Source: Candidatus Dojkabacteria bacterium (lineage in GTDB: Bacteria > Patescibacteriota > Dojkabacteria > SC72). Taken from it: 64,000 nucleotides of DNA. The notes beneath the pieces were generated by a model. It worked only from the letters and a program-made list of their open reading frames with translations. It was not told the DNA's origin and made no database searches. The stretch is taken from assembly GCA_012513575.1 (NCBI GenBank), contig JAAZBX010000007.1:27931-91930 (forward strand). Direction: 5' to 3'. A program made the translations under genes and the position numbers. Positions 41,714 through 63,097 of the stretch are shown in pieces; positions within the stretch are counted from its first letter, which is position 1, and every line of letters starts with the position of its first letter.

Positions 41714-41758
41714 GTTAAGTAATTCAAATAATATTAATTCAAACTTTCAAAAGAGCTT

Positions 41759-42157: not shown

Positions 42158-42198
42158 TTCACCTGTTTGTTGAATTTAGACAGTTTGGTTTATACATA

Positions 42199-42900: not shown

Positions 42901-43496
42901 CTTAAAGGTATTACAGTTGAATATATATAGTGTTTGACATTTCTTCTTGCAGTATATGTACCTTCGCTTGCAAGATGACCAACCACAATCCCAACATTTA
43001 TTTGTTTATCCGTAGACGCAGTGTAGGGATAAAAACATGCATATCTAAAGAAACCACTTCCAACATTATTTGTCATTATTTCTGCATCTTCAAAATCTTC
43101 TCTATGAATATTAATCGTTTCTATTGTAAGAGAAGATATCGTCAGAATCTTAAAGTCATCATCTTTTTTAAATTCAAACACTCCTGAATTTGTAGTATCA
43201 GGAATAAAACATTTGATATTTGTTGGAAAACTAGGAGCTATTTTGTTAAAAAATGATATAGCATCAGAAGAAGTAGGATACTCGTAAAATTCCTGGACTA
43301 TATTCTCAGCCATATTTGCTCCTTCAACTGCATACTGTGTCATTTTATCTATTCTTTCATTTTCTACAGCATCACTCATTGTAGAAGCTGCAATTCTCAT
43401 AAGGACAACAGATGCGACACCAACTACCATTATGGCAATAAGGGATTCAATAAAGCCCATTCCTTCATATGAATTGTATTTAATTTTGTTCTTCAT
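42897..43496 (-). CDS. Minor pilin / pseudopilin
   Basis: N-terminus YEGMGFIESLIAIMVVGV is a prepilin-type motif with Glu at +5. Confidence 0.65.
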   Translation of the reverse strand: MKNKIKYNSYEGMGFIESLIAIMVVGVASVVLMRIAASTMSDAVENERIDKMTQYAVEGANMAENIVQEFYEYPTSSDAISFFNKIAPSFPTNIKCFIPDTTNSGVFEFKKDDDFKILTISSLTIETINIHREDFEDAEIMTNNVGSGFFRYACFYPYTASTDKQINVGIVVGHLASEGTYTARRNVKHYIYSTVIPLR

Positions 43497-44292: not shown

Positions 44293-44345
44293 GTTACTAA
44301 TTCAATTTAGCATAAAACAATATACTATTCAATGTTTCTTACACT

Positions 44346-45101
44346 TTAAAGAGGTGGAATAATGAGCTGTAAGATTTTACTAAAAATCACATCTCCATAT
44401 ACAGCTCCAATTACAAAAGAAAGAGAGATGAAAGGAATCATTGGAATTTTTATCTTTTTGATATCTTCCTTTGTTATCAATCCATTAAAAATCGCATAGA
44501 GTAGAGCAGATACAATCGAGAGCCAAAAGGTCGTTAAAAATTGCTTTGGAGATATTACCAATCCAATTGAGAGTAATACTAGAATATCACCGAAGCCGAA
44601 AGATTTCTTTATTATCTTTGTTAATAGAAATATCCCTAATAATATTCCAATTGTAATAATTACAGACAGAGGAATTTGAATAAAGAGTATAAAAACAAGA
44701 ATTGAGAAAATTAATAAAGTATGAACTAAATTTCTCGGAATTTCTTTGTAGAGAAAATCATAGTATGAGAGAAGAAATAGGAATAGTAGAATTATCCAGA
44801 TATAAAAATGGGAACTATTTAAATAGAGAAGAAGGAAAGAACCTCCTAGGAAAGCTTCAGAGATAGGGTAGTAGGGATTTACCTTTGAGCGACAATTTTT
44901 ACATCTTCCTTTAATTAATAAATAACCAAAACATGGAATTAATTCATACCAAGTTAGTTTCTTTTTACATTTTTCACAATAAGAACTTTCTGTTAAGAGA
45001 GTTGATAGTTTAATATTTTTTTCAATTCTGTATAGTGTAGCGTTAATATAACTGGCCAAGGAAGCACCTAAGAAGAATATACATAAATATATAATTAGCA
45101 T
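44346..45101 (-). CDS. pilD: Prepilin peptidase / N-methyltransferase PilD (A24 family)
   Basis: Polytopic membrane protein with a CEKCKK...CKNCRS zinc-binding tetracysteine loop and conserved Asp residues. Confidence 0.8.
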   Translation of the reverse strand: MLIIYLCIFFLGASLASYINATLYRIEKNIKLSTLLTESSYCEKCKKKLTWYELIPCFGYLLIKGRCKNCRSKVNPYYPISEAFLGGSFLLLYLNSSHFYIWIILLFLFLLSYYDFLYKEIPRNLVHTLLIFSILVFILFIQIPLSVIITIGILLGIFLLTKIIKKSFGFGDILVLLSIGLVISPKQFLTTFWLSIVSALLYAIFNGLITKEDIKKIKIPMIPFISLSFVIGAVYGDVIFSKILQLIIPPL

Positions 45102-45133
45102 GTATCCATTATATACAGCTTTTTAAAAAAGAA

Positions 45134-45155
45134 GAACCCCTCGGAAGAGGGGTTC
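45134..45155 (-). terminator. Intrinsic terminator downstream of pilin gene 45171..45968
   Basis: Perfect hairpin GAACCCCTC-GGAA-GAGGGGTTC, followed on the minus strand by a T-rich run. Confidence 0.7.
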
Positions 45156-45170
45156 AAAGATATTTCTTAA

Positions 45171-45968
45171 TTACATACAGGCAGGACTATTCACATCAAG
45201 GCATTCTGTGTCTTTGTCAGAAACACAACTTGGAGAACATGGGTCATCAGGGCTTCCAGGTATTACTGGGGATGGAATATCTTTAACAATTGGTTCCAAA
45301 GTCTTATCTGTTCCATCATCCGTATCACAATATGAGGGTCTACCATCAATACAGTTTGTATTCTTTGTAGGATCACATGGAGCACAAGGGTCATAGGTTG
45401 GTTCCTCTTTTATTGGTGTCCACGTCCTTCCGTCCCAATTTGACCTTGTTTTAGCTTTCTTTATCAATTCATAACTTGCCGGGTCTTCCACAGGTAGATA
45501 CTTCTCCTTTGTTATTGTTCCAAAACCCTCTCCCATGGTTGGGTCTCCAAATCCATTTCCTACACAAATTATCCCTTTTTGTAATTCATCATCAATCCCT
45601 CCTAAAGTAACACAAATTAATACGGCTTGTTTAGATGTATTAGTAGAGTAGTAGTAGGTAGCTTCAGAACCACCATTAAAAAGACCTAAATCTAAATAGT
45701 TTTTTAGACTTCCTCCCTCTGCAGTCATCTGTTCAATACTAATTGGTGTCCCATCAGGTTGACTCCCATCTGGGAATACCCCATTATCAGTATAGAAGGA
45801 TTGAGCAGCCTGATAGAGTTGTGTGGCACCATTTTTATGTGCTATCTCATTTGATTTGTCTATTGAGAATCTTCCTGCAGCTACTCCTACGACAATTAGA
45901 ATTACCAAGATCCCCATTACAATTAGCATTTCTACTAACGTGAATGCTTTATATGATTTTTTCTTCAT
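45171..45968 (-). CDS. Type IV major pilin paralogue with a Cys-rich C-terminal extension
   Basis: N-terminus MKKKSYKAFTLVEMLIVMGILVIL is a class III signal with Ala at -1. The pilin fold has the CVTLGG...CVGNGF Cys pair. The last ~70 aa are Cys/Pro/Asp-rich with 10 Cys. Confidence 0.8.
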   Translation of the reverse strand: MKKKSYKAFTLVEMLIVMGILVILIVVGVAAGRFSIDKSNEIAHKNGATQLYQAAQSFYTDNGVFPDGSQPDGTPISIEQMTAEGGSLKNYLDLGLFNGGSEATYYYSTNTSKQAVLICVTLGGIDDELQKGIICVGNGFGDPTMGEGFGTITKEKYLPVEDPASYELIKKAKTRSNWDGRTWTPIKEEPTYDPCAPCDPTKNTNCIDGRPSYCDTDDGTDKTLEPIVKDIPSPVIPGSPDDPCSPSCVSDKDTECLDVNSPACM

Positions 45969-46029
45969 AATTGCTTTTTTAAATTTACTTATTATAAATT
46001 ACACAATATCGTTATACTTGTCAAAAGAA

Positions 46030-46051
46030 AAACCCCTCCGAAGAGGGGTTT
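46030..46051 (-). terminator. Intrinsic terminator downstream of pilin gene 46078..46653
   Basis: Hairpin AAACCCCTC-CGAA-GAGGGGTTT plus a T-rich run on the minus strand. Nearly identical to the 45134..45155 hairpin. Confidence 0.7.
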
Positions 46052-46077
46052 CAGATTACAAAACACTAAACTTTAAC

Positions 46078-46653
46078 TTATTGAACTACATCAACAGTTC
46101 CCCATCCATCTCCATTCCAGAAAGATGTATCAGCCGTCTCAACAATAGCAGTATATTCTGCATTCTCATCTGCTTCGTAAAATTCTTTGGTAATTGTAAA
46201 TGAGCCACTCCCATTTGTCAGAGTGTCAGGAGCAGTAAGGGCAAAACCGTTACCAACACAAGAGACACCTTTATTTGTCTCATCACCCGCTCCACCCAAG
46301 GTTACACAAACAACAACTGCCTGTCTGGTACTATTTACATAATAAGAATAGTCTGCCTCAGACCCACCCTTAAATGAACCCATATCTAAATATTTTCCCA
46401 AAGCACCCTCCACATTGTTAGGATTCGTGGTCATGTTCTCCAAAGTGTCATAACTTGGAAATCTTCCATAATCAGTAAAATGAGATTGTAATGCTTGATA
46501 TAACTGTGTAGCACCATTCTGGTGTGCAATTTGATTTGCTCTATCAATTGCAAACCTTCCTGCAGCTACTCCTACTACCATAAGGATAACTAAGATTCCC
46601 ATAACAATAAGCATCTCAATCAAAGTAAATGCTTTGTATGTTGCTCTCTTCAT
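46078..46653 (-). CDS. Type IV major pilin (PilA-like)
   Basis: N-terminus MKRATYKAFTLIEMLIVMGILVIL. Shares about 35 near-identical N-terminal residues and internal motifs with the 45171..45968 paralogue. Confidence 0.8.
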   Translation of the reverse strand: MKRATYKAFTLIEMLIVMGILVILMVVGVAAGRFAIDRANQIAHQNGATQLYQALQSHFTDYGRFPSYDTLENMTTNPNNVEGALGKYLDMGSFKGGSEADYSYYVNSTRQAVVVCVTLGGAGDETNKGVSCVGNGFALTAPDTLTNGSGSFTITKEFYEADENAEYTAIVETADTSFWNGDGWGTVDVVQ

Positions 46654-46720
46654 ATATTTTATATATTTAGGTTAATTTAACTAATAATAAGTTACACAAT
46701 GCTATTAACATTGTCAATAG

Positions 46721-47932
46721 CTATGTCATAACTTGAGACAAACCAAACATAGGCATATACACACCAAGTGCAATAAAACCAACTGCAACACCCATAATTA
46801 TTAACATTAAAGGCTCTAAAATTGTTGAAAGATTTGAAGTAGCAGTATCAACCTCTTCTTTATAATATTGAGATACCTTTTCTAAAACTGCATCAATCTC
46901 ACCTGTCTCCTCTCCTACAGAAATCATGCTACTAACAAGAAGTGGAAAATACTCACTCCTTGCAATCGGAAGAGCTAAAGGTCCCCCCTTTTCTACCTCT
47001 TCCTTTGATTCCATTACAACATCTTTAAATATGGAATTACTTAAAGATTGTCCTGTTAGCTCAAGAGCTTTGACAATTGACAAACCACTACCAAGCAACA
47101 AAGACAGAATTCTAGTAAATTGGGCAATCTGGGTTTTTGAAATAAGTTTACCAATAATTGGGAGTTTAATTAGAAGCTTGTCTATTGTCTTCTTTCCTTT
47201 CTCTGTGCTTTTGTAATATCTGAAACTAACATAAAATACAGAAATTATGACAATAACGGCCCACCAATAATCAAGTAAGAGATCACTTGCAGTCATAAGC
47301 ATTCTGGTAATAACTGGTAAATCAGCACCAAAATCATTGTAGATATCCGACATTGATGGAACGAGCACAAACATCATCATCAAAATAACACCCAAAATTA
47401 CTACAAGGATAATAACAGGATAAATCATTGCAGATTTAATTTTACGACTAAGAGATTCTTTTTCTTCTAATTCTGTAGCCAACTTACCAAGAATAACTTC
47501 CAAATTTCCACTTTCCTCTCCAGCTTCAATTAGGTTGAGTGTAATATTGTCAAATACATCTTCCTGCTCTCTAAATGAAACCGATAATGATTTCCCTGAT
47601 TGTACTGCAGTAGAGACATTCTGAAGAACTTTTTTAAACATTGGATTGCTTGATTGGTCAACCATTATTTCCAAAGCCCTATTAAGTGGCAACCCAGACG
47701 CAATCATTGTAGCCATCTGCCTCATAAAAACAACCTTTTCTTTCATTGGAACTCCACCAATGTTTATCTCTGAAAACCTACTGGGATCTAATATGCTTGC
47801 TTCTTTAATTGAAACAACAACTAAACCTTGATCATGGAGGATATCAGCAACAGCTCCCGGGTCTCTTGCCTCAATATCTCCCTTTACCTCTCTACCGTTT
47901 TTATCTCTTGCAGAGTATTTAAATTTCCCCAT
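46721..47932 (-). CDS. pilC: Type IV pilus platform protein PilC (GspF family)
   Basis: Two GspF repeats, three TM segments, 403 aa. Confidence 0.85.
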   Translation of the reverse strand: MGKFKYSARDKNGREVKGDIEARDPGAVADILHDQGLVVVSIKEASILDPSRFSEINIGGVPMKEKVVFMRQMATMIASGLPLNRALEIMVDQSSNPMFKKVLQNVSTAVQSGKSLSVSFREQEDVFDNITLNLIEAGEESGNLEVILGKLATELEEKESLSRKIKSAMIYPVIILVVILGVILMMMFVLVPSMSDIYNDFGADLPVITRMLMTASDLLLDYWWAVIVIISVFYVSFRYYKSTEKGKKTIDKLLIKLPIIGKLISKTQIAQFTRILSLLLGSGLSIVKALELTGQSLSNSIFKDVVMESKEEVEKGGPLALPIARSEYFPLLVSSMISVGEETGEIDAVLEKVSQYYKEEVDTATSNLSTILEPLMLIIMGVAVGFIALGVYMPMFGLSQVMT

Positions 47933-47935
47933 ATT

Positions 47936-49564
47936 TTAACCTTTTAATAATCTAACTACTTCATCAGGATGAACAGCATACTCCTGGGCTTTTTGGGCAG
48001 TTATCACACCCTCCCTTACCAAAGAAACCAATGATTTCTCAAGATATACCATTCCGATATCGGCACTTGTCCTAATGACATTATCTATCTGATGAGTTTT
48101 ACCTTCCCTAATAAGATTGGCGACAGCAGGTGTATTAAACAAAATCTCAGAAACTGCTCGTCTTCCTCCCTGGTCAAGAGGGATAAGTCTTTGAGCAACA
48201 ATAACCTGAAGAATATTTGATAGCTGCAACCTTACTTGGGCTTGCTGATTTTCTGGAAACACATCGATTACTCTATCAACTGTTTGAGCAGCATTGTTAG
48301 TATGCAATGTTGCAAATACTAAATGACCTGTCTCTGCCAAAGTAATCGCTGCAGCAATAGTTTCATAATCTCTCATCTCACCAACTAGGATAACATCTGG
48401 GTCTTGCCTCATTGCACTTCTTAGTGCAATTGCCCAAGAATTTGTATCATCATTCATTTCTCTCTGATCAATCAATGCTTTTTTGCCCTCAAAGACATAT
48501 TCAATAGGATCCTCTATTGTAATAATATGATCAAACCTGTTTCTATTAATATCTTCTAACATAGCAGCTAAAGTCGTACTTTTCCCGTGACCAGTTGGAC
48601 CAGTAACTAATACAAGACCCTGTTTTAACTTGGCAATTTGATGATATATTTGTGGCAAAAGCAATTCTTCAATGGTTTTAACTCTTGTTGGAATAAGTCT
48701 AAAAGCAGCTGCCAAATTTTTCATGGTATAGTAAGCATTTACCCTAAATCGTGCAGTTCTTGCACCTTCGAAGGAATATGCAAAGTCAATCTCTCTATTT
48801 ACTTCAAGAAGTTCTTTTTTATCATCAGGGATTACGGAGAGTATTAATTTTTCAGCTTCCTCAGGAGTCATGAGCTTTTCTCCAACATCAATTAATTCTC
48901 CATCAATTCTAATTATCGGAGGATATCCAACTGAAATATGCAAATCAGATGCATTTTTATTTACTACTTCGGTAAAAAGTTTTTCCATTGTAATTTCATT
49001 GCCTTCTAGAGAAATTTTTGAATTTTCGTTTTCAAGTGGCTCACTGTGTGGCATTATTGTACTAAGAGGTTTTGAAAGATTGTTTTCTTTCTCATTTCTT
49101 TCGAGAGCTTTTATTTTGTTAAGCTCAGGCATAATTTGAGAAAGAGACTCATTCCAATTACTTTTTGCAATGGGAGGAACTTGAAGATTTGGTAACTCTG
49201 TGGGCTTTTGTACATAGGTGGCCTCCTGTGTAGCAGAAGGTTGAGTCTGAGATTGCGCTGTCTGAGAAGGAGATGCCACTACAGATTCTTGTGCAGGTGG
49301 AGTATCTATAAGTGCACTAATGTCTTTTTTAAGTTCATTTAGTTTGTTTTCATCTATGTATGTCGAAGTAGAATCTTTTATCTCTGTCTTTGGCACTGAA
49401 GCGGTAGAAACAGGGGATGGTTGGGAGGGAGTAGAAGATGGTGCCACTGGATTGGTTTGAGGTTGTGGAACTTGTGTCGGAGTAACCTGAATAGGGGAGT
49501 TATTAAAATCTGGATACGCGAATTGCATTCCGTTTGGATTTTGATTTTGGGCAGTATTATCCAT
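47936..49564 (-). CDS. pilT: Twitching-motility retraction ATPase PilT with a ~190-aa low-complexity N-terminal extension
   Basis: PilT core with GPTGHGKSTTLAAM, Asp/His boxes and AIALRSAMRQDPDVILVGEMRD. The N-terminus is rich in P/Q/T/S. Confidence 0.85.
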   Translation of the reverse strand: MDNTAQNQNPNGMQFAYPDFNNSPIQVTPTQVPQPQTNPVAPSSTPSQPSPVSTASVPKTEIKDSTSTYIDENKLNELKKDISALIDTPPAQESVVASPSQTAQSQTQPSATQEATYVQKPTELPNLQVPPIAKSNWNESLSQIMPELNKIKALERNEKENNLSKPLSTIMPHSEPLENENSKISLEGNEITMEKLFTEVVNKNASDLHISVGYPPIIRIDGELIDVGEKLMTPEEAEKLILSVIPDDKKELLEVNREIDFAYSFEGARTARFRVNAYYTMKNLAAAFRLIPTRVKTIEELLLPQIYHQIAKLKQGLVLVTGPTGHGKSTTLAAMLEDINRNRFDHIITIEDPIEYVFEGKKALIDQREMNDDTNSWAIALRSAMRQDPDVILVGEMRDYETIAAAITLAETGHLVFATLHTNNAAQTVDRVIDVFPENQQAQVRLQLSNILQVIVAQRLIPLDQGGRRAVSEILFNTPAVANLIREGKTHQIDNVIRTSADIGMVYLEKSLVSLVREGVITAQKAQEYAVHPDEVVRLLKG

Positions 49565-49586
49565 ATATATTATTTATACCAAAAAA

Positions 49587-51419
49587 TTATTCTTTTGACA
49601 CCCTTAAGACTTCTTCTATAGTTGTAATCCCTTCAAGTGCCTTTAAATAGCCATCTTGAACCATTGTTATCATCCCTTGTTCAACACCCACATCTCTAAT
49701 ATCTGAGTCAGTAACAGTTTGCAGTATCATTCTACTGATTTTTTCAGAGATATCCAGAACTTCAAAAATACCAATTCTTCCAGAATATCCTGTTCCCCCA
49801 CAGTGATCGCACCCTTTTCCTTTGTAAAGATATATTTGTGGAGTTCCATCGGGACCGACATCTGGTGCCTTCATTACAATGGGCTCCTTTGCTCCTTCGG
49901 TATCCTTTAAGCTATTTTTTGATGCAACAACTCGGTTTAAATATGAAATCAAATCAAAATCTTTAATTCCTTTAATCGTTTCAGATATATTTCTCAAAAC
50001 TTCTGGAGATACAGGATATGCTTCAATACAGTGTTTACAGACTTTTCTAGGAAGCCTTTGAGCGGCAACAGCTCGAATAGTTGAGGCTAAAAGATATGGC
50101 TCAATCCCCATGTCCATTAACCTGGGAATTGCCGCAGCAGCACTGTTTGTGTGAAGGGTGGAAAGGACCAAATGTCCTGTCAGAGATGCCTGAACAGCCA
50201 ATTGGGCCGTTTCACCATCTCTAATCTCTCCAACCATAACAATATCAGGGTCCTGCCTTAAAACTGACCTTAAGCCGTTGGCAAAAGTCAAGCCGACATC
50301 GTCATTTATCTGTACCTGAGTAACACCTGGAATTCGGATTTCAACTGGATTTTCTAGGGAGATAATATTAACCTTAGGGTCATTTACCCTCATCAAAGAG
50401 CAAGCCAATGTTCTAGTTTTACCACTACCAGTTGGACCAGTAACAAGTACGATCCCATTTGTAACACTTAATGCATCAGTAAACACTTTAAATGCGTGTC
50501 CTCTTAAACCTGTATCCTCAAGAGCAATATTTTCCGTATCAGACTCAAGTAACCTCATGACAACCTTTTCCCCATAAATCATTGGCATAATAGAAACACG
50601 GATATCTACTTTGTTTTTCCCCATTTTAACCTGAAATCTACCATCCTGAGGGATTCTTTTTTCATCAATTTTTAAATTAGAAAGAATTTTAACTCTTGAC
50701 ACTACTGCCGGTCCAAGAGACTTTGGAAGAACAAGTCTTTCCGTCATTACACCATTGATTCTAAAACGTACTCTTACCTTTTCCTCTAAAGCCTCAATAT
50801 GGATATCAGACGTTTTACTCTTAACAGCATACTGCATAATAGAATTTACAATCCTTGCAATAGGTGCCGAAGCCAGATCTGCACTGTTTAATCCCCCCAT
50901 TGCACTTCCACTTTCATCTTCTGTTATTTCGGTAACTGGGACTCCAACATCTTCAAGCGCCTCTGTTACCTGCGAACTCATCAAATCTCCAACTCTTCTG
51001 TCTAGTATCAAACCAATTCCTTCTTTCGGAGAAATATACACTTCCATTCTTGTCCCTTGCGGATATCTACTCAGTAAAGCTTGGGTCGCCTGAATATCAA
51101 AAGGATCCTCCATTGCAATTTTGACCACGTTTCCAATTCTTTCAAAAGGAACAGCTCTATACTTCGCAAGATTATCTATGGGAATCTCAGCAATTATACT
51201 CTCAGGGACAGAAATTGTTGAAAGATCAACAAAGGGGATTCCAAATATAGCTGATTTAGCTTTAGTTAAATCCAAGTCCGATACGACATTAAGATCTTTT
51301 ATGATTGCTTCTTCAGTTTTATTTGTTCTACTTCTTTCTAAAAGAACTTTTCTTACAGTCTCATCATTAACAAGATTGTTCTCCTGAAGATATTTTAATA
51401 TCGATGTTTGGGCAGCCAT
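49587..51419 (-). CDS. pilB: Type IV pilus assembly ATPase PilB (GspE family)
   Basis: N-terminal GSPII_E_N domain, Walker A GPTGSGKTRTLA and a C-terminal tetracysteine motif (CKHC...CDHC). Confidence 0.88.
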   Translation of the reverse strand: MAAQTSILKYLQENNLVNDETVRKVLLERSRTNKTEEAIIKDLNVVSDLDLTKAKSAIFGIPFVDLSTISVPESIIAEIPIDNLAKYRAVPFERIGNVVKIAMEDPFDIQATQALLSRYPQGTRMEVYISPKEGIGLILDRRVGDLMSSQVTEALEDVGVPVTEITEDESGSAMGGLNSADLASAPIARIVNSIMQYAVKSKTSDIHIEALEEKVRVRFRINGVMTERLVLPKSLGPAVVSRVKILSNLKIDEKRIPQDGRFQVKMGKNKVDIRVSIMPMIYGEKVVMRLLESDTENIALEDTGLRGHAFKVFTDALSVTNGIVLVTGPTGSGKTRTLACSLMRVNDPKVNIISLENPVEIRIPGVTQVQINDDVGLTFANGLRSVLRQDPDIVMVGEIRDGETAQLAVQASLTGHLVLSTLHTNSAAAAIPRLMDMGIEPYLLASTIRAVAAQRLPRKVCKHCIEAYPVSPEVLRNISETIKGIKDFDLISYLNRVVASKNSLKDTEGAKEPIVMKAPDVGPDGTPQIYLYKGKGCDHCGGTGYSGRIGIFEVLDISEKISRMILQTVTDSDIRDVGVEQGMITMVQDGYLKALEGITTIEEVLRVSKE

Positions 51420-57491: not shown

Positions 57492-57549
57492 TCGCCATAT
57501 CTCTCTTGTAATATTCAAAGTCCTGTGATTATGAGAGAGGAGACATTTC

Positions 57550-57578
57550 TTAAATGTGCTTGAATTCACTTCCGACCT
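57550..57578 (+). promoter_or_regulatory. Consensus sigma-70-type promoter (TTGAAT-17-TATAAT)
   Basis: TTGAAT at 57550-57555, a 17-nt spacer, TATAAT at 57573-57578. It lies about 225 nt upstream of the GTG start at 57808 and shares the CCTATAGTATAAT block with the 62028..62056 promoter. Confidence 0.6.
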
Positions 57579-57696
57579 ATAGTATAATATAAGTATATAC
57601 CTTTATGGTATAAACTGCTCATTAAAAACTTCCAATTAATACTTTGTGATTTATATCCTGTATTAATCTGGATAAATAGCATGTGATGAGAATATA

Positions 57697-57757
57697 TTCT
57701 TCCTTATCCTTTTTGGGATGCATATTGTACCTAAGTATATTGGGTATATTATGCATC
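57697..57757 (+). repeat. Conserved ~60-nt leader element, copy A, containing inverted repeat GATGCATA-N25-TATGCATC
   Basis: Its core (TCCTTTT..GGGATGCATA...TATGCAT) aligns with copy B at 62244..62305. The arms are at 57717-57724 and 57750-57757. Confidence 0.6.
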
Positions 57758-57807
57758 TCAAATGAGGTGATAAAAAATTAAACAAGAAATATTCGAGGAG
57801 GAATATT

Positions 57808-58887
57808 GTGAAAAAGCTAGTAGTTTTTATTCTTATGTTAAGTATTGTATTAGGAGCATGTAATCCAAACCCAACAAATGTACCGACTATCGAACCAACA
57901 GCAACTCCAAGTCCAACGCCATTTGTATGGTCGTGCGAAAATGATCCCGTGAGGGGTGTATCGCTAGACTTAGAGGGAATGTACAAGACAAGTATAGAAA
58001 ATAGGTATGTTCCCGGGTGTACTCAGGGGTTTTTCATAGGTCTCTCAGGAGAGGCGTACCAAATCAATTTCCTTTTCAAGGACTATCAAGCTATTAGTCT
58101 TGACAATTCTTTTATCGCCAATTTAGAGACGACTGTTGAGTGGGAAATATATGCTTATGATTATTTTGTTCCACATCATTCTCAAAAAAAAGGTGATATT
58201 ATCTCCTTTGTAATGCCAGCTCCAGGGTATTTTCTTCTTGATCGTAACGGCTACCTTTATTTTGGAGTATTCGATGATCCTAATTTTGAAGATTATGTTA
58301 GGGTATTTGTGGATGGCGAGGAATGGTTTGCTTCTTCTACTACTGTTAGAATCTTGTTATCCCCAAATGGAGAATACATTGTACCGGAAGGAGCCACAGT
58401 AAGAATTGAGTCAATCAAGGATGCAGTTGATTATCAAGGTTTAGAGAATTACGGAACTCTCGGTTGGATTGAAGCAATTGTTTTTGAACGAACGTACCCC
58501 GGGGACACAGCAAAGACCAATCACCCAATTCTGAATGAAGAAACCCAAATTGATTTCGGACCGTATGGGATTTATAAACCCTCCTTTAACGAAGAAAGAA
58601 ACAAGTGGGGCCTTTCCCTTTCAGAAGAATCCATGGTAAAGCCTGGGATTTGGGAGGAAGGATATCTGAGAGACTTCATTTGGCACGGTGGTGCGTATGT
58701 ATTTTATATGCCCGCAGATGGGGTTGTATTTTGGAATAGAAGAACTTCTTCAATTTTGTTTGAAGGGGACGAAACAGATTCAGACACTGACAAAATAGAT
58801 GCACACCTCTATCGAGAGGGTGATTTAGTAGTTGTCTATTTTGAGAGGGCTTCTCTGGATGATTTTTACATTGAGTTTTTGAATTAA
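57808..58887 (+). CDS. Putative secreted lipoprotein
   Basis: Signal peptide with lipobox LGAC, then a Pro/Thr-rich linker (PTNVPTIEPTATPSPTP). GTG start preceded by GAGGAGG. GC is noticeably higher than in neighbouring genes. Confidence 0.6.
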   Translation: MKKLVVFILMLSIVLGACNPNPTNVPTIEPTATPSPTPFVWSCENDPVRGVSLDLEGMYKTSIENRYVPGCTQGFFIGLSGEAYQINFLFKDYQAISLDNSFIANLETTVEWEIYAYDYFVPHHSQKKGDIISFVMPAPGYFLLDRNGYLYFGVFDDPNFEDYVRVFVDGEEWFASSTTVRILLSPNGEYIVPEGATVRIESIKDAVDYQGLENYGTLGWIEAIVFERTYPGDTAKTNHPILNEETQIDFGPYGIYKPSFNEERNKWGLSLSEESMVKPGIWEEGYLRDFIWHGGAYVFYMPADGVVFWNRRTSSILFEGDETDSDTDKIDAHLYREGDLVVVYFERASLDDFYIEFLN

Positions 58888-59047
58888 TGTCTCCCCAACT
58901 CTAGCTAGGTTTAGAACTGAAATATATCTTTAATATGATTAAACATATTAAAACAAAAATTTCATTTCACACAACCTCATCACATGCTAGAGTTCTATTT
59001 AGATATTTGTTCTAAAATACTATTTTGTATTTTCTGATAAATACCTA

Positions 59048-59272
59048 TCATTGAACTCTTACAATATTAAAATCCCTGTAATACTCATCACCTGATAACG
59101 CTATGATATTTTTTGACAACTCATCATAACTCATCCAGCTATCATCAATTCTTTTTTTCTTTAAACTTTTTTTAAGAATATTCTCAAATTTGCTTAATTT
59201 CTCATTCAAGTGATAAATTTCAGTATTAACAATTTGGGAAATCATTAGATAATCCTCATTTGATAATCTCAT
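59048..59272 (-). CDS. Small hypothetical protein
   Basis: 74-aa ORF with an AT-rich upstream region. No recognisable motifs. Confidence 0.3.
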   Translation of the reverse strand: MRLSNEDYLMISQIVNTEIYHLNEKLSKFENILKKSLKKKRIDDSWMSYDELSKNIIALSGDEYYRDFNIVRVQ

Positions 59273-59401
59273 ACTTTTTATTAATAAATTTATTAATTTA
59301 TTCTAACCCACTCCGAAATATACTTCTTCACCTAGAGAAAAATATATTAACCTTGTATAAAATTGCTATTCTCCAAGAACTATATGTTGTAAAATAAGAA
59401 C

Positions 59402-60226
59402 ATGTCAGAATTCTGGGTAAAAATGATTACTTTTCTAATGAGTTTGACCCTATCTGTATCAACATATAGCCCTATGGGGAAATTAGTTAATCCTGATGAG
59501 AAAGGAATACTTTTCAGAGGAGAAGTTAAAGAGAGATTAATCAATGAGAATTCGGGAATTAAAGCTTTAACAACTCCTAATATCGTATCAAACAATACAA
59601 TCATAGGCTCAAAATGGTGGATATATCCTGAAGAAATTAAGCTAACGAAAAGAAGTGGAAATGATTTACTTGTTCTTGTGAATAAAGAGTATCGCTTACC
59701 AGAAACCTTTATCCCTATAGATCTTGTAAAAGCTAGCCAGTCGGGGATTAGAAGAGGAGAGAGCTATTACCTCAGGAGTATCTTAATTAATGACTTAAGA
59801 GACTTAGTAAACCAGGCTTCAAATGATGGCGTTGATTTAAGTATTCGCTCAGGATATAGATCTTATGCCGACCAACTTTATACTTACAATTTCTGGTTAA
59901 AAGCGAATGGAAATATTGAGGACGAAGCCGACAAGGTATCCGCTAGAGCAGGGCATAGCCAACACCAATTAGGCACTGCAATTGATTTTAGTAGCGCAGA
60001 AATCCAGGATGGATTAGGAGGCCAATTTTCAGGAACCCTTGCAGCCAAATGGTTAGAACAAAATGCATGGAAATACGGATTTGTTTTGGCTTTTCCAAAA
60101 GGATATGAAAATACAACTGGCTTTAGTTACGAAAGTTGGCATTACAGATATATTGGTATCGCTAATGCTTTAAATGTGATAAATAGTGGGAAAATATTGG
60201 AAGTATACTTAAGAGAGATTAATTAA
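59402..60226 (+). CDS. D-alanyl-D-alanine carboxypeptidase (peptidase M15B/VanY-like), secreted
   Basis: SGYRSY, AGHSQHQLGTAIDF and ESWHYRYIG Zn-binding motifs. N-terminal signal anchor. Confidence 0.8.
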   Translation: MSEFWVKMITFLMSLTLSVSTYSPMGKLVNPDEKGILFRGEVKERLINENSGIKALTTPNIVSNNTIIGSKWWIYPEEIKLTKRSGNDLLVLVNKEYRLPETFIPIDLVKASQSGIRRGESYYLRSILINDLRDLVNQASNDGVDLSIRSGYRSYADQLYTYNFWLKANGNIEDEADKVSARAGHSQHQLGTAIDFSSAEIQDGLGGQFSGTLAAKWLEQNAWKYGFVLAFPKGYENTTGFSYESWHYRYIGIANALNVINSGKILEVYLREIN

Positions 60227-60240
60227 CGTATAATAAAAAA

Positions 60241-60873
60241 ATGAAAAGTAATGGACCTCAAAAGATTCAAAATATTTATGTACTAATAGGATTTTTCTTT
60301 CTTTTTCTCTCGCTTATTGCTATTGCCATACCTATTGGGCCATATGTTTGGTATAGAATCAATCCCAATGAGACAGATAAAGATATTGAAAAAATCGTTA
60401 AGGAGATAACAACTGAAAAAATTGAACACAAAACTAAAACCACATCTCAAGTACCTCCACTTGACCCATCACTTCCGGAAACACCTTTTGTAATTATCCC
60501 CAAAATCAATGTTGAATCTCCGATCTCAACAAATAAAGATTTTAATACTGGCCTTGCAAAGGGCTCATGGATTGTGTCAGATTACGGAACTCCTGAGAAA
60601 CCAGAATTGCCAATTATTCTTGCTGCTCATAGATTCGGCTATGCAAATTGGAGTGTAGAGAAAAGAAATAGAATCTCTTTTTACAATCTCCCAGAGACCC
60701 AAGAGGGAGATGATGTTTTTATCTATTGGAATCAAAGAAGATATAACTACAAGATCTACAAGTCAAAAGAGAGTACCTATATTAGCGATTACAGTGCCGA
60801 CCTCATACTATATACATGCAAATTCTTTAATTCTCCGGTTCGTATCTTCCGGTATGCAGAGCTAGTTAAATAA
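60241..60873 (+). CDS. Sortase (second copy in window)
   Basis: N-terminal TM anchor, His in ILAAHRFGY, Cys in LILYTC and Arg in VRIFRY. Confidence 0.7.
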   Translation: MKSNGPQKIQNIYVLIGFFFLFLSLIAIAIPIGPYVWYRINPNETDKDIEKIVKEITTEKIEHKTKTTSQVPPLDPSLPETPFVIIPKINVESPISTNKDFNTGLAKGSWIVSDYGTPEKPELPIILAAHRFGYANWSVEKRNRISFYNLPETQEGDDVFIYWNQRRYNYKIYKSKESTYISDYSADLILYTCKFFNSPVRIFRYAELVK

Positions 60874-60967
60874 GCATTCCTCACACAGAGAGAAGCCCCA
60901 TAGTGTTGCCATTTCGGTTATTTCATGCTATAATTATCCTGCATTTAAATTAACTAGCCCTTTATAT

Positions 60968-61207
60968 ATGAGGAAGTTATTTTCAGCAACTTTAGCTGCT
61001 ATCTTGATTTCCGCTATAAATGTTTCTTCTGTCCTAGCTAGTGGGAACCCATACGGTCCATATAATCCATATGAACCTCATGAACCACTTCCAACTGGAT
61101 TTGGTGATACAAACACCTTCTATCTAGTAGCATTAGTCGCATTTACTGTCGGAATGATTATCTTAGCAATAGCTAAAGACCTTAAGGGCAAGCAGTCTGC
61201 TGCATAA
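60968..61207 (+). CDS. Tiny secreted protein with an LPTG-type C-terminal sorting signal
   Basis: Signal peptide ending VLA, then a ~17-residue mature segment SGNPYGPYNPYEPHEP, then LPTG, a 20-aa hydrophobic stretch and a basic tail KDLKGKQSAA. Encoded immediately downstream of the sortase. Confidence 0.55.
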   Translation: MRKLFSATLAAILISAINVSSVLASGNPYGPYNPYEPHEPLPTGFGDTNTFYLVALVAFTVGMIILAIAKDLKGKQSAA

Positions 61208-61276
61208 CAGTTGACTGCTCCCTTGGGGAGCAATAAATGCATTTTCTATAAATTTACTTATTTTTATCATTTTAAA

Positions 61277-62050
61277 ATGAAACTATCTTTGGTTATACCA
61301 ACATACAAAAAACAAAGAGATGTTTTGGATCAATTAGAAAGAGTATACGGCTACCTTTCAAGAAAGAATCCTGACTTTGAACTCATCTTCGTTATTGATG
61401 GGTATGTTGATAATACTAAGGATATTTTAGAAAAATATGTTAAGGAGAATAGATTAAAAAAAGTTTCCATCATAGGATATGAAGATAATATGGGTAAGGG
61501 ATATGCTGTTAGATATGGAATGAAAAGAGCTACAGGGGACGTTATTGGCTTTATTGATGCTGATACAGATATTCAAATTAGGACTTTAGGTTATGCTCTA
61601 AAATCTATCAAACATGATTCTGTCATGGCTGTAGTACCTTCTAAATTTCATAAGGATTCAAATGTTGAAATGAAACTTGGTAGAAAGATTCTTTCCTATG
61701 GATTGATGTATACTAATAGGTTTCTTTTAAAGCTACCAAAGAATGTTGACGATGTTGGGTGTGGTCTCAAATTATTTAGAAAAGAATTAATCGAAAGAAT
61801 ACTTCCTTCGTTAAGAGTAAATAATTTTGCGATAGATTCTGAGATATTAAATCTAATTGGTAGAGTAGGTTACTCAGTTTCCGTTATTCCTTTCTACTTA
61901 AACAAGAACAGAAGTGAAAGTACATCTGCGAATATTGGGAAGATTTTAGGCATGGTGAAAGATATATTTGTCCTTTCATTAAGTAATAGATATATTTTCA
62001 AGAACTCATTCTCAAAGCCATCTTACATTGACAATTCTAGCAACCTATAG
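61277..62050 (+). CDS. Family 2 glycosyltransferase (polyprenol-phosphate sugar transferase-like)
   Basis: LSLVIPTYKK...IFVIDGYVDNT...IDADTD motifs (DXD). The start was moved from the track ORF (61211) to the ATG at 61277. Confidence 0.8.
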   Translation: MKLSLVIPTYKKQRDVLDQLERVYGYLSRKNPDFELIFVIDGYVDNTKDILEKYVKENRLKKVSIIGYEDNMGKGYAVRYGMKRATGDVIGFIDADTDIQIRTLGYALKSIKHDSVMAVVPSKFHKDSNVEMKLGRKILSYGLMYTNRFLLKLPKNVDDVGCGLKLFRKELIERILPSLRVNNFAIDSEILNLIGRVGYSVSVIPFYLNKNRSESTSANIGKILGMVKDIFVLSLSNRYIFKNSFSKPSYIDNSSNL

Positions 62051-62056
62051 TATAAT
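62028..62056 (+). promoter_or_regulatory. Consensus sigma-70-type promoter (TTGACA-17-TATAAT)
   Basis: A perfect -35 and -10 with a 17-nt spacer. It overlaps the stop codon of the GT2 gene and lies about 310 nt upstream of the ATG at 62364. Confidence 0.6.
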
Positions 62057-62243
62057 ACATGTGTTAATTGTTAACCTGCTCTTTATAAATTAATCCTTAA
62101 GAATTCATAGTGAAGACCCTTGTCCTATATGAGTTCTTAAGAACTCGAAGATCATTAAAAATTTCTAAGTATATACATTGATTTTATTCGGTATGTATTT
62201 AGATCAAATAGTGTGTGATGTAAGAGAGTAGGGTATTCATTTT

Positions 62244-62305
62244 ACTTCCTACCATCCTTTTGGGATGCATAGTGTATCTAATATTTATTGGATATAGTAT
62301 GCATT
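62244..62305 (+). repeat. Conserved ~60-nt leader element, copy B, containing inverted repeat GATGCATA-N26-TATGCAT
   Basis: Aligns with 57697..57757. The arms are at 62264-62271 and 62298-62305. Confidence 0.6.
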
Positions 62306-62363
62306 CCATTTGGATGCAAAAGCAGAGAGCTTTTTCGAAAATTATCGGCTTAAGGAGGCCAAA

Positions 62364-62924
62364 ATGAAAGACAATAAGAAAGATGAAAAGAAACCTAACT
62401 GGAAAGAAAAGATCAAAGAGGTCAATTGGTGGATGGTTTTGGCCATCATTGCGGTCATAGCTTTATTGCTATCGTTCGCCTATCGGGCGCAACAAGCGAA
62501 GCTAGCCGCTCCAGCAGCATCATCACAGTCCTCAGGACAAACAGGCGACCAGACAGGCATCGTTGCTGCGGCTCCCAATTGTCAAGAAATTGGCATAACT
62601 TTCGGCAAAAGCGGTTCATTCCGTTCCGTATGGGACTCGAATATGAAAACATGCGTTCTGGGAATGTGGGAAGAAGCGAGGATTTCGCCCGGAATGTCCT
62701 TGGCGGACTTGAAAATTCAAGGGGACGATTACTCGTTCCTCATGCCGTTCAAGGGATCAATTAACCATTCCGCGGACACCATTTTCGTGAACAATACAAA
62801 ATGTACCCCAGGGAACCCTGTTTCCTGTGATGGGAAAACTTCGTTCGAGAAGAACACCCCAGTACATATTGTTTCCGAACCGGGAAATGATTCCTCAGGC
62901 GTAATGCTTATTCAAAATCCATAA
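62364..62924 (+). CDS. GC-rich secreted or membrane-anchored Cys-containing protein of unknown function
   Basis: An AAGGAGG RBS 7 nt upstream of the ATG at 62364; the track ORF start at 62310 lies inside the leader. N-terminal signal anchor (WWMVLAIIAVIALLLSFA). Roughly 48% GC against a much lower-GC background. About 5 Cys in the exported part. Confidence 0.6.
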   Translation: MKDNKKDEKKPNWKEKIKEVNWWMVLAIIAVIALLLSFAYRAQQAKLAAPAASSQSSGQTGDQTGIVAAAPNCQEIGITFGKSGSFRSVWDSNMKTCVLGMWEEARISPGMSLADLKIQGDDYSFLMPFKGSINHSADTIFVNNTKCTPGNPVSCDGKTSFEKNTPVHIVSEPGNDSSGVMLIQNP

Positions 62925-63097
62925 CAAACTCTCTGCTCCTGGGTGGGGGACAATCTTTTCTGCTTAACCGCATTAAAAATCCCCCACCCCACAAACATCA
63001 CACACTATCAATCTTCTAAGACTATACTGTCTTACTGATGAGTCCACATATATTTACAAATATATTGAGGACGAAAAGATTTCCAAACCTTGAAGAA

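Follow-up and report, generated by a model that had tools for sequence, protein, structure and literature searches.

The window analysed here—a 64,000-nt stretch of contig JAAZBX010000007.1 from Candidatus Dojkabacteria bacterium—holds three related gene units: A and B on the plus strand, and C on the minus strand at about 2541-1748. In each unit a near-consensus promoter containing the invariant block CCTATAGTATAAT is followed by a long leader carrying one or two matches to the BoxA (NusB/S10-binding) consensus, a GU-rich strand that is complementary to a trailer 450-1300 nt away, just past the stop codon, and a gene for a predicted membrane, lipo-, or secreted protein. In units A and B an anti-Shine-Dalgarno (anti-SD) sequence, an AUGCAU hairpin, and the SD lie in this order ahead of the gene; in B-type units a type III hammerhead ribozyme with a canonical core, predicted to be self-cleaving, directly follows the trailer.

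An earlier note described the promoters and leaders of units A and B, each with a conserved element of about 60 nt, and its observation holds up, apart from a 10-nt coordinate slip for promoter A, which had been placed at 57550-57578. Promoter B is exactly as described, and the shared -10 block CCTATAGTATAATA is found at 57576-57589 and 62044-62057. The ATGCATA/TATGCAT arms of the conserved element are separated by 25 nt in A (57718-57756) and 26 nt in B (62265-62304); the pattern ATGCAT-N20-35-ATGCAT occurs only at these two places in 64 kb, against 0.08 expected. Leader lengths are about 213 and 301 nt, assuming that transcription starts about 7 nt after the -10 box. The similarity between the two leaders is not limited to the 60-nt element, however—it runs over about 157 nt plus the promoter (blastn E 3e-16). 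Both downstream proteins are envelope proteins by sequence, with a lipobox in A and an N-terminal membrane segment in B; the claim of higher GC holds for gene B (0.47-0.49 against a window mean of 0.34) but barely for gene A (0.38-0.41, like other genes here). The note had missed four things: unit C, the trailers behind the genes, the BoxA matches, and the hammerhead.

Organization of the three units

The features of unit A, all on the plus strand, are as follows.

57560-57588 (+): promoter, with TTGAAT at 57560-57565, a 17-nt spacer, and TATAAT at 57583-57588; the block CCTATAGTATAAT, present in all three units, is at 57576-57588.
57596-57627 (+): 5' stem-loop (TATACC/GGTATA, 57596-57612), which by eye covaries with that of unit C (GGTACC/GGTATC), then the BoxA-like motif GCTCATTAAAA (57617-57627).
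57631-57672 (+): helix P4, TCCAATTAATAC ... GTATTAATCTGGA.
57677-57690 (+): leader strand of the leader-trailer helix, TAGCATGTGATGAG, GU-rich and boxC-like.
57694-57705 (+): anti-SD sequence ATATTCTTCCTT.
57708-57766 (+): AUGCAU hairpin, the conserved element of the earlier note.
57795-58887 (+): SD GAGGAGG plus the cargo gene, a predicted 359-aa lipoprotein with a GTG start at 57808 and no Pfam family.
58976-58989 (+): trailer strand CTCATCACATGCTA, 89 nt past the stop codon and the exact reverse complement (14/14) of 57677-57690.
58990-59066 (+): 3' structure, GAGTTC ... GAACTC enclosing nested stems; it sits where B-type units have the hammerhead, but lacks the CUGAUGA/GAAA core.

Unit B carries an additional helix and a second BoxA-like motif.

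62028-62056 (+): promoter, with TTGACA at 62028-62033, a 17-nt spacer, and TATAAT at 62051-62056 (12 of 12 consensus bases).
62063-62088 (+): 5' stem-loop (GTTAA-TTG-TTAAC), then the first BoxA-like motif GCTCTTTATAA (62078-62088).
62096-62146 (+): helix P2, CTTAAGAATTCATA (62096-62109) with TATGAGTTCTTAAG (62128-62141), a B-type-specific insert; the local hairpin GAGTTC-TTAA-GAACTC (62131-62146) is an alternative pairing.
62150-62203 (+): second BoxA-like motif GATCATTAAAA (62150-62160) and helix P4 (62164-62203).
62209-62220 (+): leader strand TAGTGTGTGATG, complementary to 62996-63007; the helix extends to 14 bp over 62208-62221.
62245-62250 (+): anti-SD sequence CTTCCT, read from the sequence.
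62253-62316 (+): AUGCAU hairpin.
62352-62924 (+): SD AAGGAGG plus the cargo gene, 186 aa with ATG at 62364 and an N-terminal membrane anchor.
62996-63007 (+): trailer strand CATCACACACTA.
63009-63082 (+): type III hammerhead, with stem III AAUCUU/AAGAUU, the predicted cut after C63016, stem I UAAGAC/GUCUUA, then CUGAUGA, stem II GUCC/GGAC, and GAAA.

Unit C lies on the minus strand and has no hammerhead.

2541-2463 (-): promoter (TTGAGA 2541-2536, TATAAT 2518-2513), 5' stem-loop (2505-2488), exact BoxA GCTCTTTAAAA (2483-2473), and leader strand GGTTCTACC (2471-2463).
2368-1814 (-): two small membrane proteins of 62 aa (2368-2180) and 118 aa (2170-1814).
1811-1748 (-): trailer GGTAGAACC (1811-1803), directly after the stop codon, followed by a long hairpin GGAGGGAACAAT...ATTGTTCCCTCC.

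Distribution, cargo, and turnover

Pattern scans found 74 metagenome loci, of which a few look like chance matches, and 3 reference-genome loci—all from Dojkabacteria-like candidate-phyla bacteria. Nearly all have a -35 box at 17 nt and the same order of elements, and a TTG at 17-nt spacing is present in 51 of 62 distinct modules; the metagenome scan required TGCTCNTTA and the -10 block, however, so the constancy of these two is partly by construction. An extra copy, found with a profile that does not include the promoter, has the same layout. The 5' stem-loop is less general, being present in only 25 of 62 distinct modules.

Of 55 distinct cargo proteins, 51 have an N-terminal hydrophobic segment and 8 have a lipobox. 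Cargo genes are swapped or absent between close relatives (related sequences are labelled here with L numbers). L062, a genome 96% identical on both sides, lacks the whole A unit; in L051 the body of gene A cannot be aligned by blastn although the flanks are 87-99% identical; and relatives with the same B leader carry different genes (L003 against L007, and L002).

RNA structure and covariation

The sense strand folds better than the antisense strand in 57 of 58 distinct leaders, by 23 kcal/mol on average. The AUGCAU hairpins of A and B fold at -32.7 and -35.1 kcal/mol, with z-scores of -6.9 and -7.3, and the element recurs in related genomes with compensatory changes, as the earlier note had proposed to check: in 22 distinct homologues 97.7% of cells are paired, 7 of 20 pairs change on both sides, G-U pairs are conserved, and 0 of 500 shuffles reach the observed score. 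This hairpin is, however, only the last helix of a much larger unit. For helix P4, aligned across 32 distinct leaders, base pairs change on both sides (CG 22 / UA 9 and UA 26 / CG 5), with 87% of cells paired against 26-71% when the partner is slid; for helix P2, the alignment and RNAalifold give AU 21 / UA 7 and GC 29 / AU 4.

The leader-trailer helix is found in every A/B-type unit whose locus extends past the gene, as a 14-mer complement with 0-3 mismatches (0-2 in all but one) directly after the gene; truncated loci give only 5-7 mismatches as their best match. Across 34 distinct A/B pairs, 98.4% of cells are paired and 6 of 13 positions change on both sides, while 0 of 500 shuffles reach the observed score and slid controls give 16-53%. 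The same covariation would be expected of DNA-level inverted repeats, and one-sided changes give 3 G-U against 5 A-C, so the helix itself offers no RNA-specific signal. C-type units have a different 9-nt pair, present in all 9 loci that extend far enough but invariant, leaving no covariation test for this helix.

The anti-SD of unit A pairs with GAGGAGGAATAT (57795-57806) in the minimum-energy fold of L001, whose leader from BoxA to the start codon is identical to that of the window. In unit B, homologues pair CTTCCT with the SD in several minimum-energy folds, but in the window's own fold the SD sits in a local hairpin, GGCUU-AAGG-AGGCC. The predicted unpaired probability of the SD has a median of 0.07 in 42 leaders and 0.35 in 22 control genes (p = 0.002); the sequences are related to one another, so the statistics on SD masking and folding do not rest on independent samples.

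No Rfam family matches the leaders. At the 3' end, the hammerhead of unit B matches Rfam RF00008 with 30.5 bits (E 1e-4), and the hammerheads overall score 30-32 bits, below the gathering score of 48.5; 19 distinct homologues directly follow a trailer, on the strand of the unit, with canonical cores, type III topology, and compensatory changes in the stems. The A-type units of L005, L030, and L055 carry a canonical intrinsic terminator at this place instead. Additionally, a GC-rich hairpin with a weak terminator-like tail (62930-62990) lies between gene B and its trailer, and could end some transcripts before the trailer is made.

BoxA and the resemblance to rRNA operons

Unit C matches the BoxA consensus GYTCTTTAANA (PMC5725501) exactly, and units A and B have one mismatch each; at the first box, many B-type relatives match exactly. 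BoxA is a short AT-rich motif that is not enriched in this AT-rich window (25 matches with at most 1 mismatch, against 27 expected). In 10 of 32 distinct leaders the second box reads GTTCTTTAAAA, an exact consensus match that the scan pattern did not select for. The order of boxA and then a GU-rich strand forming the 5' half of a leader-trailer helix is that of E. coli rrn operons, where boxC is UCUGUGUGGG (PMC10250234); no rRNA gene lies in any of the sequences retrieved, so that the motif could not be set beside the rRNA leaders of this lineage. The leader-trailer helix is only 9-14 bp here, against 25-40 bp in enterobacterial rRNA. A nusB gene is present in the window.

Alternative explanations

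The earlier note offered two interpretations, a shared cis-regulatory RNA (riboswitch-like or protein-binding) or a mobile promoter cassette driving acquired genes, and these are partly supported: the leaders are a shared, structured, cis-acting RNA, and the cassette idea has substance.

The reading of the units as mobile or recombining cassettes, in which the promoter-to-3'-element unit is an insertion module that spreads or is lost as a block and the conserved sequences serve mobility or recombination rather than RNA function, survives best, although we consider it unlikely as the main account. L062 is 95-97% identical on both sides but lacks window 57494-59060, exactly the A unit; in the window this unit is flanked by an imperfect direct repeat of about 29 bp (57505-57531 and 59059-59085); A-type units sit at different places relative to the VanY and sortase genes in L005 and L075; and cargo genes are replaced. 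In contrast, no integrase or transposase was found among the eight ORFs scanned at or beside units A and B, the repeat is only about 76% identical, and B and C units keep their genomic position across distant relatives. Helix covariation, sense-strand bias, and a ribozyme all point to function at the RNA level. This reading concerns turnover, not function, and is compatible with the one we favor.

A riboswitch-like or protein-binding sensor, in which the conserved 60-nt hairpin or the conserved leader core binds a small molecule or a regulator and controls the downstream gene by attenuation or by opening the SD, is less likely still. The leaders are long and structured, with highly conserved unpaired stretches such as AAAUAGYGUGUGAUGA and UCUUUAAAA; the SD is predicted to be masked; and the AUGCAU arms are invariant, which suggests sequence-specific recognition. 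However, the most conserved "unpaired" stretch is explained by its pairing with the trailer. A role for the 60-nt hairpin as the sensor is not supported—it is the most variable helix of the leader and is replaced by unrelated long hairpins in sister subfamilies, whereas the most conserved parts (the BoxA-like motifs, the GU-rich strand, and the 3' hammerhead) lie outside what the note described. The leaders have no Rfam match, and the genes served are a mixed set of envelope proteins, not a metabolic pathway. None of the leader hairpins is followed by a U-run in the sequences read, which argues against attenuation by premature termination.

We consider it improbable that the leader and trailer strands are the ends of an invertible or transposable DNA segment—a phase-variation switch or terminal inverted repeats. 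They are 13-14-bp inverted repeats that flank the gene and evolve in concert, the few one-sided changes show no preference for G-U over A-C, and the cargo is variable surface proteins, the usual targets of phase variation. However, none of the roughly 34 distinct units is in the inverted orientation, and cargo replacement breakpoints lie near the start codon, about 120 nt inside the repeat (L003 against L007). Strong conservation continues outside both repeats, in the promoter, BoxA, and P4 upstream and the hammerhead downstream; the trailer always abuts an RNA-level element (a hammerhead, a terminator, or a hairpin); and no recombinase gene lies nearby.

Least likely is a precursor of a circular or viroid-like coding RNA of about 1 kb, formed by hammerhead cleavage, a 5' processing event, and ligation: in its favor are a type III hammerhead, about 0.95 kb from predicted start to cut site, paired ends, and one small ORF, and the size and ribozyme type recall Obelisk elements (PMC10827157), but the units are chromosomal DNA with their own promoters next to housekeeping genes such as gyrA and a glycosyltransferase gene, A- and C-type units have no ribozyme at all, and with only one ribozyme per unit and no known ribozyme in the leaders, nothing is predicted to make the 5'-OH end that ligation needs.

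Interpretation

The two loci are members of a large family of self-contained expression cassettes for fast-changing envelope proteins in tiny, uncultured Dojkabacteria-like candidate-phyla bacteria, built like miniature rRNA operons (boxA, boxC, leader-trailer helix) wrapped around mRNAs; we could not find this design described. We take the architecture as demonstrated by the sequence comparisons—the near-consensus sigma-70-type promoter, the long untranslated leader with BoxA-consensus motifs, the GU-rich strand that is complementary to the trailer and covaries with it, the conserved hairpins, and, in B-type units, the hammerhead abutting the trailer. In contrast, how the units work is inferred, with start sites, 3' ends, and self-cleavage all predicted, and we favor the following account with moderate confidence only.

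In this view, NusB-S10 would bind BoxA (GCUCUUUAAAA) on the nascent leader and, together with NusA and NusG, make the polymerase resistant to termination across the 130-360-nt untranslated leader. As proposed for rRNA operons, the BoxA tether would keep the leader strand near the RNA exit channel until the trailer emerges, whereupon the leader-trailer helix would close the mRNA around the gene. The hammerhead would then cut 9-10 nt past the helix, its place being taken in other units by a terminator or a long hairpin; the result would be a defined 3' end with a 2',3'-cyclic phosphate, tucked against a duplex and therefore hard for 3' exonucleases to attack, and a transcript cut free from read-through into the convergent gene. 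Inside the closed mRNA the ribosome-binding site would be masked by the anti-SD, with the AUGCAU hairpin acting as the clamp, and translation would therefore need an opening event—a factor, an RNA, or temperature. Finally, we infer from the polymorphism that the conserved frame may also serve as flanking homology that lets cargo genes be exchanged between strains.

Promoters and Shared Sequence Elements

Both promoters described in the earlier note exist. The promoter of unit B lies where the note placed it, whereas that of unit A lies 10 nt to the right of the position given there. The observation in the note is confirmed, and the finding is real and much larger than described. A third copy (unit C) lies on the minus strand and aligns with leader A over about 125 nt. 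The main elements are as follows:

57560-57588 (+), unit A promoter, TTGAAT-17-TATAAT
62028-62056 (+), unit B promoter, TTGACA-17-TATAAT
2525-2512 (-), unit C, CCTATAGTATAATG
57708-57766 (+), unit A hairpin with the ATGCAT arms
62253-62316 (+), unit B hairpin with the ATGCAT arms

The note also reported a shared -10 block and a conserved element of about 60 nt. The block CCTATAGTATAATA is indeed shared, and the ATGCAT...ATGCAT pattern occurs only at the two reported places in 64 kb, against 0.08 expected; both copies fold into long hairpins with z about -7. However, the two leaders are alike over far more than 60 nt, with similarity covering the promoter plus about 157 nt. Directly upstream of the -10 hexamer, CCTATAG is identical in all three units (57576-57582, 62044-62050, and 2525-2519 on the minus strand), while the rest of the spacer differs. 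This is not the usual extended -10 (TGn)—it might be the site of a factor or a special contact with sigma.

A second strong promoter-like site (60906-60934; TTGCCA, 17 nt, TATAAT, preceded by TG) stands in front of a 79-aa protein (60968-61207) with a signal peptide and a C-terminal membrane segment; this gene lies just after a sortase gene and does not carry the leader family. A type IV pilus-like gene cluster on the minus strand (39293-51419) includes two paralogous pilin-like genes (45171-45968 and 46078-46653; a 199-nt repeat at 74% identity), neither of which carries the leader family. A near-identical 28-nt hairpin-forming sequence (AAAAGAAGAACCCCTCGGAAGAGGGGTT) lies at 45127-45154 and 46023-46050, on the 3' side of each pilin gene.

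Relatives in Reference Genomes and Metagenomes

A scan of reference genomes for the hairpin found three loci, in MAGs labelled Candidatus Dojkabacteria or Saccharibacteria, which lie at the same genomic positions as units A and B. We then scanned metagenomes with a pattern taken from what units A, B, and C share (CCTATAGTATAAT, 15-32 nt, TGCTCNTTA) and found 74 loci, mostly from anaerobic digesters and sludge, including anaerobic-digester samples of the Ga0116... and Ga0255... series; individual related loci are referred to below by labels such as L062. Nearly all have a -35 box at 17-nt spacing and the same downstream order of elements, although about four look like chance matches. In viral contigs there was no match to the promoter-BoxA pattern. 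A profile of the leader core that does not include the promoter found a further unit whose -10 box differs by one base (CATAAT), so the layout is not an artefact of the pattern. This profile is sequence-only and was used only to find further copies, because RNAalifold found no pairs on the MAFFT alignment of the core, in which the arms were misaligned.

Leaders fall into three length classes with the same 5' part: C-type leaders of about 130 nt, A-type leaders of about 210 nt, and B-type leaders of about 300-365 nt. B looks like A with an inserted helix and a second box. Units can also sit in tandem—on one short contig (L074) two B-type promoter-leader modules lie 2.08 kb apart (117-161 and 2196-2240), and the hammerhead-like element of the first unit reads CUAAUGAAGAG and may be degenerate.

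Leader Structure

The leader is a structured RNA. The sense strand folds better than the antisense strand in 57 of 58 distinct leaders, by 23 kcal/mol on average. The hairpin singled out in the earlier note has, in 22 distinct versions, 97.7% of cells paired and 7 of 20 pairs with changes on both sides; it keeps two conserved G-U pairs and an invariant AUGCAU in each arm. No shuffle reaches the observed covariation, and slid controls pair at 30-52%. In other subfamilies, the hairpin is replaced by unrelated long hairpins at the same place. Helix P4 and the B-specific helix P2 also show compensatory changes, with the P4 pairs counted by script after moving one gap in the alignment.

Just 5' of the AUGCAU hairpin lies a CUCCUU-type anti-Shine-Dalgarno (anti-SD) sequence. 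In about half of the minimum-energy folds it pairs with the SD, while in the rest the SD sits in a small local hairpin. The predicted unpaired probability of the SD is lower than for 22 other genes in the window, with a median of 0.07 against 0.35 (p = 0.002); the related sequences are not independent, so this is modest support for masking of the SD.

Searches against Rfam gave no credible family for the leaders. At gathering level the whole window returned only a tRNA; at E-value level the two leaders and 12 related loci returned, for the leaders, only microRNA-like hairpin noise and RefA1 at 25 bits against a threshold of 94. We also considered leader peptides, but the small ATG-led frames in the leaders are not conserved (MV* in unit A against 6 codons in unit C and in the related locus L001) and none has an SD. 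An independent small RNA ending before the gene was rejected because none of the leader hairpins read is followed by a U-run, and a DNA operator palindrome was rejected as an explanation of the AUGCAU hairpin because of the conserved G-U pairs and the 23 kcal/mol advantage of the sense strand.

BoxA-Like Motifs

The motif CTGCTCTTTAAAAA, shared by the three window units, matches the BoxA consensus GYTCTTTAANA derived for NusB/NusE sites (PMC5725501). Unit C matches exactly (2483-2473), while units A and B have one mismatch each. Of 62 distinct modules, 38 are exact, although the scan fixed 8 of the 11 positions; many B-type leaders carry a second exact match that the scan did not select for (GTTCTTTAAAA), and this second box is exact in 10 of 32 distinct leaders. 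The match carries little statistical weight on its own—the motif is short and not enriched in this AT-rich window—and a search for rRNA genes against which the GCUCUUUAAAA motif could be compared found none in the window or in any of the 77 loci (554 kb of fetched sequence). The position of the motif nevertheless follows the expected layout: it starts 28-35 nt after the -10 box in the three window units (20-37 nt were allowed by the scan), in a leader whose start site is predicted, and is followed by the GU-rich strand that pairs with the trailer.

A nusB gene lies in the window (37463-37915, Pfam E 4e-31) and is followed by, and as called overlaps, the RNase III gene rnc (37851-38594); both are potentially relevant to BoxA and to the processing of a leader-trailer helix. 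In one further locus (L068, minus strand, about 106 nt from the contig end), the same -10 block is followed by TTGCTCATTAAGGAGAAAGGGAAATG, that is, a BoxA-like motif overlapping the SD, as in suhB; this may be a chance match or a different use of BoxA.

Trailers and Hammerhead Ribozymes

A permissive Rfam scan of related loci returned a sub-threshold type III hammerhead (RF00008) in locus L064. This stretch aligns at 92% with window 62993-63089, although the gene before it cannot be aligned at all. In the window, the match is 63009-63082 (30.5 bits, E 1e-4), and it has every core nucleotide—C3 U4 G5 A6 N7 G8 A9, G12 A13 A14, the A15.1-U16.1 pair, and H17 at the cut site—read here as CUGAUGA and GAAA, with predicted cleavage after C63016. 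Three stems are present, with stems I and II closed by loops and stem III open.

A stricter pattern search found 33 such ribozymes in the window and fetched loci, each on the strand of a B-type unit and about 1 kb downstream of it. In 19 distinct homologues the core reads CUGAUGA 17 times, CUGACGA once, and CUGAAGA once, and one homologue (L025) has the 15.1-16.1 pair swapped. The stems show compensatory changes: stem I occurs as UAAGAC/GUCUUA, UGAGAU/AUCUCA, UAGGAU/AUCCUA, and UAAGAG/CUCUUA, stem II as GUCC/GGAC against GUCU/AGAC, and stem III varies with its partner; the counts of this comparison include 4 chance matches that have no trailer. None reaches the Rfam gathering score of 48.5, with 30.5 bits in the window, 32 bits in L064, and no hit at gathering level in 12 loci; long AU-rich insertions in stems I and II probably lower the score.

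Directly 5' of every hammerhead is CAUCACAC(A/G)CUA, the reverse complement of the most conserved 'single-stranded' motif of the leader, UAG(U/C)GUGUGAUG. A search for the best complement of each leader motif in the 2.3 kb downstream gave two clearly separate outcomes: whenever the locus extends past the gene, the best match has 0-3 mismatches of 14 (0-2 in all but one unit) and lies right after the stop codon, whereas in truncated loci the best match has 5-7 mismatches. In 34 distinct leader/trailer pairs, 98.4% of cells pair and six of 13 positions change on both sides (CG 26/UA 8, GC 31/AU 3, AU 26/GC 7, UA 30/CG 3, GC 30/AU 4, and AU 22/UA 4); no shuffle reaches the observed score, and slid controls give 16-53%. 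The pairs in the window are:

57677-57690 with 58976-58989 (+), unit A, 14 of 14
62209-62220 with 62996-63007 (+), unit B
2471-2463 with 1811-1803 (-), unit C, a different pair: GGUUCUACC directly after BoxA with GGUAGAACC directly after the stop codon

The C-type pair is present in 9 of 9 loci that reach that far, but it does not vary. What follows the trailer differs between types: B-type units have a hammerhead, the A-type units of the related loci L005, L030, and L055 have a canonical terminator, the A unit of the window has a long irregular hairpin, and C-type units have a long hairpin. The 3' element of the A-type was considered as a hammerhead, since it sits at the same place, starts with a similar sequence (GCUAGAGUC/GCUAGAGUUC), and is closed by the same kind of outer stem; however, it lacks CUGAUGA and GAAA and is not classed as one. 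The constant feature is therefore a trailer at the predicted 3' end of the message, whereas the device that would make that end varies. In unit B, a GC-rich hairpin (GGGTGGGGGA ... TCCCCCACCC) with a weak terminator-like tail lies between the stop codon and the trailer (62930-62990), and could end some transcripts early.

Cargo Genes and Turnover

The genes enclosed by these units encode envelope proteins: of 55 distinct cargo proteins, 51 have an N-terminal hydrophobic segment and 8 have a lipobox, and none of those tested has a Pfam family. Locus L062 is 95-97% identical to the window on both sides, yet it lacks 57494-59060 (the corresponding site is L062:4535-4550), which is precisely unit A from before its promoter to the end of its 3' hairpin. 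In the window this stretch is bounded by an imperfect direct repeat of about 29 bp (57505-57531 and 59059-59085), the right-hand copy of which overlaps the 3' end of a minus-strand ORF (59048-59272). In locus L051 the flanks are 87-99% identical, but the body of gene A is not alignable; L003 and L007 share the B leader almost to the SD and then carry different genes, and L002 carries yet another. The frame is thus more stable than its cargo, which fits exchange by recombination in the conserved flanks.

Comparison with Known Systems

Among the closest known systems is the rRNA operon leader with its leader-trailer helix and Nus antitermination complex. In E. coli rrn operons the order is boxB, boxA, boxC; boxC (UCUGUGUGGG) lies in the 5' strand of a covarying leader-trailer helix, and boxA, tethered to NusB at the polymerase, is proposed to hold that strand in place until the trailer is made (PMC10250234). 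The units described here share a strong promoter, a BoxA consensus motif early in the predicted transcript, sometimes preceded by a stem-loop, and, downstream of it, a GU-rich strand (UAGYGUGUGAUGA) that forms the 5' half of a covarying helix with a trailer beyond the gene. In contrast, the enclosed RNA is a protein-coding mRNA of 0.5-1.3 kb and not 16S or 23S rRNA, the helix is 9-14 bp and not 25-40 bp, a 40-nt hairpin (P4) lies between BoxA and the strand where E. coli has 18-19 nt, and the 3' side ends in a hammerhead, a terminator, or a hairpin instead of RNase III sites and the next rRNA. The helix would therefore work like that of rRNA operons, but it is not a member of the family.

BoxA elements outside rRNA are known from the suhB 5' UTR and other genes (PMC5725501) and from CRISPR array leaders (PMC7665894), where they likewise lie in the untranslated leader and are proposed to protect untranslated RNA from Rho or to control translation. 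Those elements are single short motifs within 50-80 nt of the gene or array, with no trailer pairing, no structured multi-helix leader, and no ribozyme; here BoxA is 100-300 nt upstream of the start codon and is often present twice. Type III hammerheads that flank genes are known in bacteria, mostly in prophages (PMC3088659). These share the catalytic core, the topology, and a placement between genes that implies processing of a longer transcript into gene-length mRNA; the ribozymes described here are not in prophage context, occur once per unit, always immediately 3' of a sequence that matches the unit's own leader, and are tied to a particular promoter-leader family, with scores below the Rfam gathering threshold.

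Pairing between the 5' and 3' UTRs of one mRNA across the coding region, with effects on nuclease access or translation, is known for B. subtilis hbs (PMC5737220). S. aureus icaR is another such case. Those are single genes, whereas here a family of dozens of paralogous and orthologous units shares the device, with covariation, BoxA-like motifs, and predicted ribozyme-made ends. A further parallel is found in the conserved 5' expression regions in front of variable surface lipoprotein genes of Mycoplasma (the vsp, vlp, and vpma families)—small-genome bacteria that depend on other cells, with a highly conserved promoter and 5' untranslated region ahead of fast-changing surface-protein genes. 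The Mycoplasma systems work by DNA inversion or repeat slippage in clustered gene families; here the units are dispersed, each has its own promoter, no inversion is seen, and the conserved parts form RNA structures. We found no report that combines these features, and no paper that links hammerheads, BoxA, or leader-trailer pairing to Patescibacteria or to mRNAs of this kind.

Interpretation and Alternative Readings

The best reading is an rRNA-operon-like, end-paired, and often (by prediction) ribozyme-terminated mRNA cassette for envelope proteins—a new combination of known parts. Comparative sequence analysis establishes the family, the helices, the leader/trailer complementarity, the hammerhead anatomy, the cargo bias, and the polymorphism. 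The mechanism, in the absence of transcript data, is inferred: Nus factors would bind BoxA, protect the long untranslated leader, and help the ends to pair; the hammerhead would cleave itself and make a 3' end 9-10 nt past the helix, protected by the duplex and by its cyclic phosphate; and the SD would be masked by the anti-SD, with the AUGCAU hairpin as clamp, so that translation would need an opening event.

The interpretation in the earlier note fares unevenly, with its cassette idea partly supported and its riboswitch idea not supported. For a mobile element, unit A shows presence/absence polymorphism, but the only candidate ends are the imperfect 29-bp direct repeat, and no recombinase was found among the neighbouring genes scanned. 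For a riboswitch, there was no credible Rfam hit and the cargo is a mixed set of envelope proteins, although an unknown aptamer cannot be excluded. The leader/trailer covariation could equally reflect DNA inverted repeats; however, three observations speak against an invertible DNA segment—no unit is in the inverted orientation, replacement breakpoints lie inside the repeats and not at them, and an RNA-level element always abuts the trailer. Two apparent exceptions in orientation were a gene-finder miss (L048) and a frameshifted gene (L020:1640-2263), in which the cargo gene of a B-type unit is split into a 57-aa membrane-anchor part and a 118-aa C-terminal part, either a frameshifted pseudogene or an assembly error inside an otherwise intact frame. 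Circularisation would need a second ribozyme in the leader, and none was found in the Rfam searches of the two leaders and 12 related loci.

A more far-reaching possibility, which we put forward only tentatively, is that these units are a distinct class of bacterial mRNA. In this view the transcripts would be made by an rRNA-type, BoxA/Nus-modified polymerase, closed on themselves by a leader-trailer helix, and released by a hammerhead ribozyme instead of a terminator, giving end-protected messages for surface proteins; the conserved frame would double as portable homology arms that let these small-genome bacteria, thought to live attached to other cells, swap surface-protein genes.

Implications

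BoxA, leader-trailer helices, and hammerheads are each well known; however, BoxA with a leader-trailer helix is regarded as a device of rRNA operons, and the biological role of most bacterial hammerheads is still unclear. The frame is also a compact natural design for stable, insulated expression cassettes. If a large family of ordinary protein-coding genes uses all three together, this would extend the RNA-chaperone idea for the Nus complex to mRNAs, and would give bacterial hammerheads a concrete job—making mRNA 3' ends next to a protective duplex. It would also reveal how candidate-phyla bacteria, which have few classical regulators, express and diversify the envelope proteins through which they are thought to contact their hosts.
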